The translations under genes were made by a program, and so were the position numbers. The notes beneath the pieces were generated by a model. It ran no database searches and was not told the origin of the DNA. It was given only the letters and a program-made list of their open reading frames with translations. From NCBI GenBank assembly GCA_029838215.1, contig JALGVI010000032.1:1-34365 (forward strand): a DNA stretch of 34,365 nucleotides. The letters are read 5' to 3'. This document shows, in pieces, positions 9,063-9,770 of this stretch. Within the stretch, counting starts at the first letter, position 1. The number at the start of each line of letters is the position of its first letter. Source of the DNA: Candidatus Helarchaeota archaeon. Lineage in GTDB: Archaea; Asgardarchaeota; Lokiarchaeia; Helarchaeales; RDOG01.

Positions 9063-9770
9063 CTAGTTAAGCCTCCTTATTAGATTGTTTACCTCAACTT
9101 CAGACACCTTTTGGTAACCTTCAGCAGTAATGAGAACCATGTCAATTCCATTACCAGTATGAGGATTTCTTTCGATTGCAGCCAACATTGCCTTCAACGC
9201 TAATTTTTGTGCATCTTCAAGAGTTAAATCGTCGTGAAAGCCACCTTCTAAAACGCCATAGGAGAGCTGGGAACCTGAACCTGAAGAAATATACCGATCA
9301 TCAGGAATGAGAGCTCCACTTGGATCCATTAAATACAAGCGTGGATTTTCAGAAGCCACGTCAAGACCACCAATCAATAATTGAGTGTATAATGGAGCAC
9401 CAGAGCGGTAATACCCGTGAAAGACTTTTCCAATAAATTGAGCTGCTGCTTCTATCCTCATTTCATGCCCGTGTTCATACAAATACAGTCGAAATTCAGC
9501 CCTCAATCGATCTATTATGTTTTGAGCGTCTGCAACCAATCCTGCAATCGCAACTCCAATGCGTTTATCAATCATGTGAATTTTTTCTCCTTGTTTTGAC
9601 GCGATGAATGAATTCCCGGCTGAAACACGCCTATCTGCCGCAATTATTATGCCTTTATTTGTTCGTATTCCTATTGTCGTCGTCAATTCATGACCACTTC
9701 CATTATTGTTTTTTGAATGATCTATAGAATTGATTGCTATTTGGTGACCAACTGATGAAAACCCAGTCAT
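9063..9770 (-). CDS. psmB: 20S proteasome beta-type subunit, non-canonical paralog
   Basis: TTTIG, AADRR, EKIH, AGLVADAQ and SGSGS are present. The residue before Thr1 is Leu, and the RDxxSG motif reads RNPHTG. The stop abuts the alpha start. Confidence 0.93.
   Translation of the reverse strand: MTGFSSVGHQIAINSIDHSKNNNGSGHELTTTIGIRTNKGIIIAADRRVSAGNSFIASKQGEKIHMIDKRIGVAIAGLVADAQNIIDRLRAEFRLYLYEHGHEMRIEAAAQFIGKVFHGYYRSGAPLYTQLLIGGLDVASENPRLYLMDPSGALIPDDRYISSGSGSQLSYGVLEGGFHDDLTLEDAQKLALKAMLAAIERNPHTGNGIDMVLITAEGYQKVSEVEVNNLIRRLN

Follow-up and report, generated by a model that had tools for sequence, protein, structure and literature searches.

A Helarchaeales-specific proteasome beta/alpha gene pair whose beta subunit lacks a propeptide and carries asparagine at position 166

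The window analysed here is a 34,365-nt stretch of a Candidatus Helarchaeota genome (contig JALGVI010000032.1, assembly GCA_029838215.1). Its minus strand encodes a proteasome beta subunit followed directly by an alpha subunit, and a second, canonical beta lies elsewhere in the same window. The original prediction had singled out the first of these as a distinct beta paralogue with altered residues at the cleavage site and active site. The codon positions it gave for the TTG, Thr1 and Asn166 are all correct on the minus strand, and the second beta is as it described. The features on which the analysis rests are the following.

9063 to 9686, minus strand: coding sequence of the propeptide-less beta, 207 aa, beginning Met-Thr1, with its TAG stop at 9063-9065
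9684 to 9686, minus strand: TTG, the predicted initiator codon ("Leu-1" in the original prediction); ATG in 10 orthologous loci
9681 to 9683, minus strand: ACG, second codon of the beta, the Thr1 nucleophile; invariant in 28/28 database clade members and 3 genome copies
9633 to 9635, minus strand: Asp17 codon of the beta, from the window sequence
9582 to 9584, minus strand: Lys33 codon of the beta, from the window sequence
9540 to 9542, minus strand: Gly47 codon of the beta, from the window sequence
9276 to 9278, minus strand: serine codon of GSG (Ser129) in the beta, from the window sequence
9162 to 9167, minus strand: AAT CCT, encoding Asn166-Pro167 in place of the usual Asp166-x, with Asn at 9165-9167
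9691 to 9701, minus strand: Shine-Dalgarno-like GGAAGTGGTCA, 5-15 nt before the TTG
9687 to 9770, minus strand: 5' non-coding region of 84 nt (a 28-codon propeptide in the original prediction), aligning with non-coding DNA of locus L052
9740 to 9752, minus strand: GTTGGTCACCAAA, a degenerate copy of an element with consensus YTAGTCAAT(A/T)(A/T), at -66 from the start
8382 to 9062, minus strand: dedicated alpha, 226 aa (PF10584, E 2.6e-12; PF00227, E 5.7e-39)
33572 to 34189, minus strand: canonical beta paralogue with a ~13-residue propeptide, KTG/TTT and RDTASG

According to the ORF list of the window, the minus-strand frame from 9770 to 9063 is open throughout (235 aa). The original prediction took the ATG at 9768-9770 as the start, which gives a 28-residue extension ending in Leu-1 at a GHEL/TTT junction that could not autocleave, and hence an unprocessed or trans-processed subunit. 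The frame is indeed open both here and in an identical second assembly, and ATG is a stronger start codon than TTG. Orthologous DNA, however, argues strongly for the shorter form. We compared the start region at ten orthologous loci (L008-L013, L052, G128, G125 and G127), and in all ten an ATG aligns with the TTG at 9684-9686. An in-frame stop lies 1-14 codons upstream of that ATG in each locus, and other starts are absent, so a propeptide is impossible at any of them. The upstream frame, reaching the ATG at 9768-9770, is open only in the source genome and in L051, a second public assembly identical across the beta gene and 300 nt upstream, TTG included. No open frame matching 9687-9770 exists in the ten orthologous loci; the L052 DNA that aligns with it is non-coding and holds in-frame stops, and the putative extension, which also contains the -66 element, is not conserved as protein.

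Protein comparisons and translation signals lead to the same start. The protein-collection copy of the beta (P0002, 207 aa, 100% identical) begins at the TTG, the database's gene caller having picked this codon as well. The 27 closest relatives in the collection, at 48-78% identity and carrying the NCBI names Helarchaeota, Helarchaeales or Lokiarchaeota, all have the N-terminus M-TTT(I/L)G, and in the three of them with short added N-termini a Met likewise immediately precedes Thr1. The 16S rRNA of this genome ends in GGATCACCTCCT at its 3' end, corresponding to a Shine-Dalgarno consensus of GGAGGTGATCC; a good motif of this kind precedes the TTG, and a GGTGA-type motif is found at the same position in every orthologue locus. 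Inspection of the window sequence found no such motif ahead of the ATG at 9768-9770. Given the orthologue ATGs, the upstream stops and the Shine-Dalgarno motif, we assign the TTG at 9684-9686 as the start codon with high confidence, and regard the 28-residue extension as very improbable.

The beta is thus without a propeptide, and its sole residue at -1 is the initiator Met. Since "Leu-1" is the initiator and Thr1 follows it directly, there is nothing to process, and the subunit is neither unprocessed nor trans-processed. The original prediction had also allowed that orthologues might show Gly-1 and Asp166; none reverts to either, whereas the conservation of Leu-1 did not hold, the aligned codon being ATG. 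Sequencing error or strain drift can be excluded for both the TTG and Asn166, as L051 is identical and Asn166 is present in all orthologues.

The DNA upstream of the TTG has a feature of its own. In 8 of 11 loci the YTAGTCAAT(A/T)(A/T) element lies 65-71 nt ahead of the beta start, and some loci have further copies at ~22-nt spacing: at -151, -129, -107 and -67 in L015 (G128), and at -130, -108 and -67 in L008. The element may act on the beta-alpha operon as a promoter or operator. A role as a genome-wide regulon signal is unsupported: the source genome (G000) has 44 matches against ~139 expected, with 0 in tandem, and so no genome-wide enrichment.

The encoded protein matches PF00227 at E 6.1e-52 (176.5 bits against a cut-off of 22.4). 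Against the equivalog model TIGR03634 it scores 192.6 bits, below the cut-off of 224; because the canonical beta of the window also falls under it, though only just (217.6 bits), this cut-off appears strict for Asgard sequences. An AF2 model of the 207-aa beta (pLDDT 86, pTM 0.85) agrees with the betas of 1PMA, 6BDF and 3H4P, T. acidophilum and M. jannaschii included, at TM 0.90-0.91 and rmsd 1.8 Å, and is least confident in the 21-30 loop and in the 171-180 loop that contains Asn166. The N-terminal Thr1, the Asp17-Lys33 triad and the Gly47 oxyanion hole are all present in the window beta, bearing out the prediction that Thr1, Asp17, Lys33 and the SGS-equivalent serine (here GSG) are kept, and the S1-pocket stretch IAGLVxDAQ is canonical. 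Two elements depart from the standard. The propeptide with Gly-1 that is removed by autolysis is lacking, the protein starting Met-Thr1, and the second triad of Ser129, Asp166 and Ser/Thr169 is incomplete: Ser129, Thr169 and Gly170 are kept, and residue 166 is Asn.

To place these residues, the beta was aligned with 271 homologues, and 28 database clade members were compared with 244 others; with 3 genome copies, the clade totals 31. Met-1, Thr1-3, Asp17, Lys33, Gly47, the GSG serine, Arg165, Asn166, Pro167, Thr169 and Gly170 are invariant in 28/28. Asn166 is present in 31/31 clade members, against Asp166 in 226/244 other homologues, confirming a distinct paralogue with an altered residue at this position; Pro167, constant in the 28 database members, is Leu in one genome copy (G127). 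Gly-1 is found in 215/244 homologues outside the clade. Thr1 and the TTT motif are invariant in 31/31, down to 48% identity. Five positions set the clade apart from all other betas: Met-1, Phe89, Ser123, Asn166 and Pro167. Judged from its residues, this beta is near-standard with two local changes, unlike the heavily remodelled Connectase.

In a maximum-likelihood tree of 169 beta sequences (quick search, SH-aLRT support only and no bootstraps, typed eukaryotic betas left out), the 31 Asn166 members are monophyletic with an SH-aLRT of 99. Their sister group (support 95) consists of ordinary Asgard betas with a ~13-residue propeptide, Gly-1 and RDVFSG, so the Asn166 beta appears to descend from a canonical self-processing one. 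We searched 400 species genomes, a sample of the phylum, with a profile of the clade, taking at least 320 bits as orthologue level. Matches at this level occur in 4/400 genomes, namely the source genome, G128 of the same family, and G125 and G127 of the same order; the next best match scores 226 bits. All genomes compared are of MAG grade. Both the beta and its dedicated alpha are absent from G123 and G126, which belong to the same order, and in G124 a contig end truncates the dedicated alpha, so that the place of the beta falls past it. Because orthologue-level matches are confined to one order (Helarchaeales by NCBI names), the clade appears to be an order-level invention, far younger than eukaryogenesis.

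The original prediction had suggested an early step toward the hetero-oligomeric beta rings of eukaryotes, for which we find no support. The clade is restricted to one Asgard order and nested among canonical Asgard betas. Its best solved relatives are archaeal betas (116-136 bits, 35-36% identity, top PDB hit E 1e-38), and the best eukaryotic match among PDB sequences, beta5/beta5i, reaches at most 90 bits; the comparison with eukaryotes is based on these PDB scores together with the nested, order-restricted position of the clade. How the seven-subunit rings of eukaryotes arose is a question on which the pair has no direct bearing. A 495-aa hit that matches in two stretches (P0123) is a tandem eukaryotic alpha and irrelevant here. 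Searches of the literature on Asgard or Helarchaeota proteasome paralogues yielded no description of the Asn166 clade.

The alpha gene follows the beta without a gap, its ATG abutting the beta stop codon (TAGATG). The dedicated alpha just reaches the NF003075 cut-off (219.9 against 219) and falls below that of TIGR03633 (209 against 287). It keeps GYDR with the YDR gate motif, SPDGR, EYA and EKIFQ, whose Lys lines up with the lysine of the activator pocket in alphas of known structure; one residue is missing in GG-RPFG, and the C-terminus is short and divergent. Its relatives (P0280-P0313) share 45-74% identity and are 219-231 aa long, with a sharp drop to the canonical alphas of 237-260 aa. 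The dedicated-alpha clade, of 37 members, is monophyletic (SH-aLRT 99).

This alpha follows the beta directly in all 11 loci examined, and the two co-occur in G000, G128, G125 and G127. Their clades diverge in parallel, identities falling from 78 to 48% for the beta and from 74 to 45% for the alpha. The beta-then-alpha order is found in several Asgard families and is not peculiar to the Asn166 clade; in families f13 and f18, one closed genome included, the beta-alpha operon is the only 20S, with two PF00227 genes. The alpha tree, also a quick search with SH-aLRT support only, has a branch (support 96) that parts the canonical alphas from the dedicated alphas and the f13/f18 operon alphas, though the branches are long. 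These observations hint that the pair may derive from an old Asgard beta-alpha operon. On gene order and sequence, 9063-9686 and 8382-9062 on the minus strand probably form a two-gene operon encoding a lineage-specific second 20S core pair.

The surrounding genes are varied. A plus-strand gene at 7001-8344 encodes a 447-aa protein whose N-terminus weakly resembles ribosomal L13e (PF01294, E 2e-5), ahead of numerous helix-hairpin-helix repeats (HHH_5, E 8e-23), and a homologue of it adjoins the alpha in L012, L051 and L052. Diverging from the promoter region of the beta are two ferredoxin-like 4Fe-4S genes (9984-11020), which lie upstream of a plus-strand ORF of 762 aa (11120-13408) without any Pfam match at E 1e-3. 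On the plus strand at 5574-6365, 2 kb from the alpha, is a gene of the PAC2 family of proteasome assembly chaperones (PF09754, E 1e-31). The PAC2 neighbourhood recurs in the closest relative, L012, and in 0/5 other loci inspected. Being confined to the window and L012, this linkage was rejected as functional.

PF00227 genes number seven in the source genome (3.6 Mb; completeness 94%, contamination 6%), of which 3 encode alphas and 4 encode betas. The expansion is real, for the same seven recur in G128, a near-complete relative in 10 contigs. The number of 20S genes varies widely within the phylum, from this set in G000 and G128 to the two genes of f13 and f18. Among canonical beta orthologues with RDIGSG, the G128 copy (G128:C10:20498-21097, L047) starts M/TTT without a propeptide; its orthologue in the source genome (C64:24742-25302, L002) has a 14-residue propeptide ending HTG. 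A fourth beta of the source genome, on contig C165 (76675-77211, minus strand; L004:1501-2037), reads WAPG/ATTVG, Thr1 being replaced by Ala.

Neither of the two changes in the Asn166 clade is confined to it. Propeptide-less betas that keep Asp166 are found in G128:C10, G126, G127, G305-G308 and among P0043/P0066-type proteins, and a separate propeptide-less group has the form M-TTIVGI...ERDPGSG. As the canonical orthologues of G128 and the source genome differ in this respect within one family, propeptide loss has evidently been frequent and recent in these archaea. A propeptide ending in Gly-1 is usual among 20S betas, yet 11-12 betas outside the clade do without one. In the tree set, the 11 propeptide-less betas outside the clade all keep Asp166 (11/11), and Asn166 occurs in 8 betas that have Gly-1 and a propeptide (P0130 and P0162, for example). 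A general rule coupling propeptide loss to D166N therefore fails. The absence of a propeptide and Asn166 are combined only in the Asn166 clade, where the combination appears to have arisen once. It is this natural combination, together with a matched alpha, that appears to be new.

How might such a subunit work? Translated from the TTG as Met-Thr1, the beta would lose its Met to one of the two type-II methionine aminopeptidases (MetAPs) whose genes score above cut-off in the genome, exposing the Thr1 amine co-translationally and without autolysis. Thr is a permitted penultimate residue under the established specificity of these enzymes. The beta would be inert before assembly, would be built into a 20S-type particle on rings formed by its own alpha, and by homology would then most likely be a working threonine protease; the operon pair would be accessory to the two further alphas and three further betas of the genome. 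Propeptide-less subunits are active only once in a complex, and archaeal propeptides have no known function (Fuchs et al., PMC8665760); good assembly has been described for deltaN betas of S. acidocaldarius (PMC4569737). Asn166, with Pro167, may weaken the proton relay from Ser129 and residue 166 to the Thr1 amine, with lower turnover or a shifted pH dependence and pKa but a living site, by analogy with the yeast beta5-D166N mutant. In that mutant (Huber et al. 2016, PMC4792962) the propeptide is still hydrolysed and chymotrypsin-like activity is drastically reduced, yet carfilzomib and MG132 readily modify the site; its authors argue that with the substitution the Thr1 amine has a lower pKa. 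We somewhat favour this picture as a whole: a second 20S core, matured by MetAP without autolysis, whose activity is tuned by Asn166.

The same experiments raise the question of whether the Asn166 beta is dead or nearly so. With the same gene model and its own alpha, its part in the ring could be structural or regulatory, as with Sulfolobus Saci0662 or eukaryotic beta3/4/6/7. The strong loss of activity caused by D166N in yeast beta5 means that the subunit might have almost none, and in the archaeal enzyme D166A abolishes both autolysis and catalysis (PMC4792962). Archaeal mixed rings do use non-catalytic betas (PMC4569737), and two canonical active-type betas are already present in this genome. 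The main argument for activity, however, is Thr1: it and the TTT motif are kept throughout the clade, whereas recognised dead betas lose Thr1, as do the C165 beta and 39 database homologues that share its Ala1. The Asn166 beta accordingly does not show the loss of Thr1 that marks the inactive class of eukaryotic beta3/4/6/7 and the Saci0662 type. Other residues say less. The C165 beta retains Glu17, Lys33, Asp166 and Ser169 despite Ala1, so conservation at these positions alone does not imply catalysis. The yeast D166N site still binds inhibitors covalently (PMC4792962), and there are naturally occurring Asn166 betas that bear Gly-1 and a propeptide, whose maturation needs a working site. We thus consider an inactive subunit, also raised by the original prediction, to be rather unlikely, and the Asn166 beta to be most likely catalytically active, as its sequence and the yeast analogy suggest. 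If this genome has a eukaryotic-type dead beta, the subunit resembling one is the other gene: the C165 beta is the real candidate for a non-catalytic, Saci0662-like or eukaryote-like subunit.

A different question is whether the pair builds its own particle. The Asn166 beta and its alpha might instead join the other two alphas and three betas in a hetero-oligomeric, eukaryote-like mixed 20S, a possibility compatible with the picture favoured above. Sets of 3 alphas and 4 betas in both G000 and the near-complete G128 would suit such an arrangement, S. acidocaldarius is known to form mixed beta rings (PMC4569737), and the PAC2-family gene at 5574-6365, an assembly-chaperone gene, lies nearby. 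Against this, the tight operon coupling and the parallel divergence of alpha and beta suggest a matched pair, a beta-alpha operon makes up the entire 20S in f13 and f18, and outside this window the PAC2 linkage recurs in the closest relative alone. We regard a mixed particle as possible but doubtful.

The order-specific pair, with a beta that is naturally both without a propeptide and D166N, is apparently undescribed. D166N is the mutation used in yeast to probe protonation of the Thr1 amine, and the pair offers a native context in which to ask whether a site that need not undergo autolysis still requires Asp166. It also bears on separate versus mixed particles in Asgard archaea with 3 alphas and 4 betas. 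More speculatively, and as a long shot, Helarchaeales may run two chemically distinct 20S particles, with the operon-encoded one matured by MetAP and Asn166-Pro167 keeping its Thr1 amine deprotonated; the outcome could, for example, be an altered pH optimum, proteolysis that is slow and "gated", or a preference for aminolysis or transpeptidation. Were this two-particle reading true, it would amount to a natural experiment on the second catalytic triad of the proteasome.

Among known systems, archaeal PsmB (M. jannaschii 3H4P, T. acidophilum 1PMA; PF00227, TIGR03634, MEROPS T1) has the fold in common with the Asn166 beta, along with Thr1, Asp17, Lys33, Gly47, Ser129, Gly170, IAGLVxDAQ and an alpha partner. 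The Asn166 beta differs in having neither propeptide nor Gly-1, in carrying Asn166-Pro167 for Asp166-x, and in forming a separate one-order clade with an alpha of its own. Beta-then-alpha order is also that of the actinobacterial prcB-prcA operons, of which Rhodococcus has two sets; bacterial betas bear long propeptides that aid assembly. The gene order and the duplicated beta/alpha sets are alike, but the sequences are not closely related (TIGR03690, 72 bits; cut-off 192). In HslV, in engineered delta-pro archaeal betas and in other M-TTT betas, Thr1 comes right after the initiator Met, and removal of the Met exposes the nucleophile, as it would in the Asn166 beta. Identity as HslV is rejected by the scores (NF003964, 28.4 bits against 137; TIGR03692, 28 bits against 157.75), and other natural M-TTT betas, in Asgard and other archaea, keep Asp166 (11/11 in the tree set), whereas the Asn166 beta does not.

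S. acidocaldarius resembles the present genome in having more than one beta, the non-catalytic Saci0662 forming mixed rings with the catalytic Saci0909 (PMC4569737). The Sulfolobus betas share one alpha, and one of them is non-catalytic; the Asn166 paralogue, in contrast, keeps Thr1 and has its own alpha. The closest parallel in substitution is yeast beta5-D166N, in which the same residue, one that relays protons with Ser129 to the Thr1 amine, is changed in the same way (PMC4792962). There it is a laboratory mutation of a propeptide-bearing subunit and impairs growth, whereas in this clade Asn166 is natural, fixed in 31/31 members and accompanied by Pro167, in a subunit for which autolysis is not needed.
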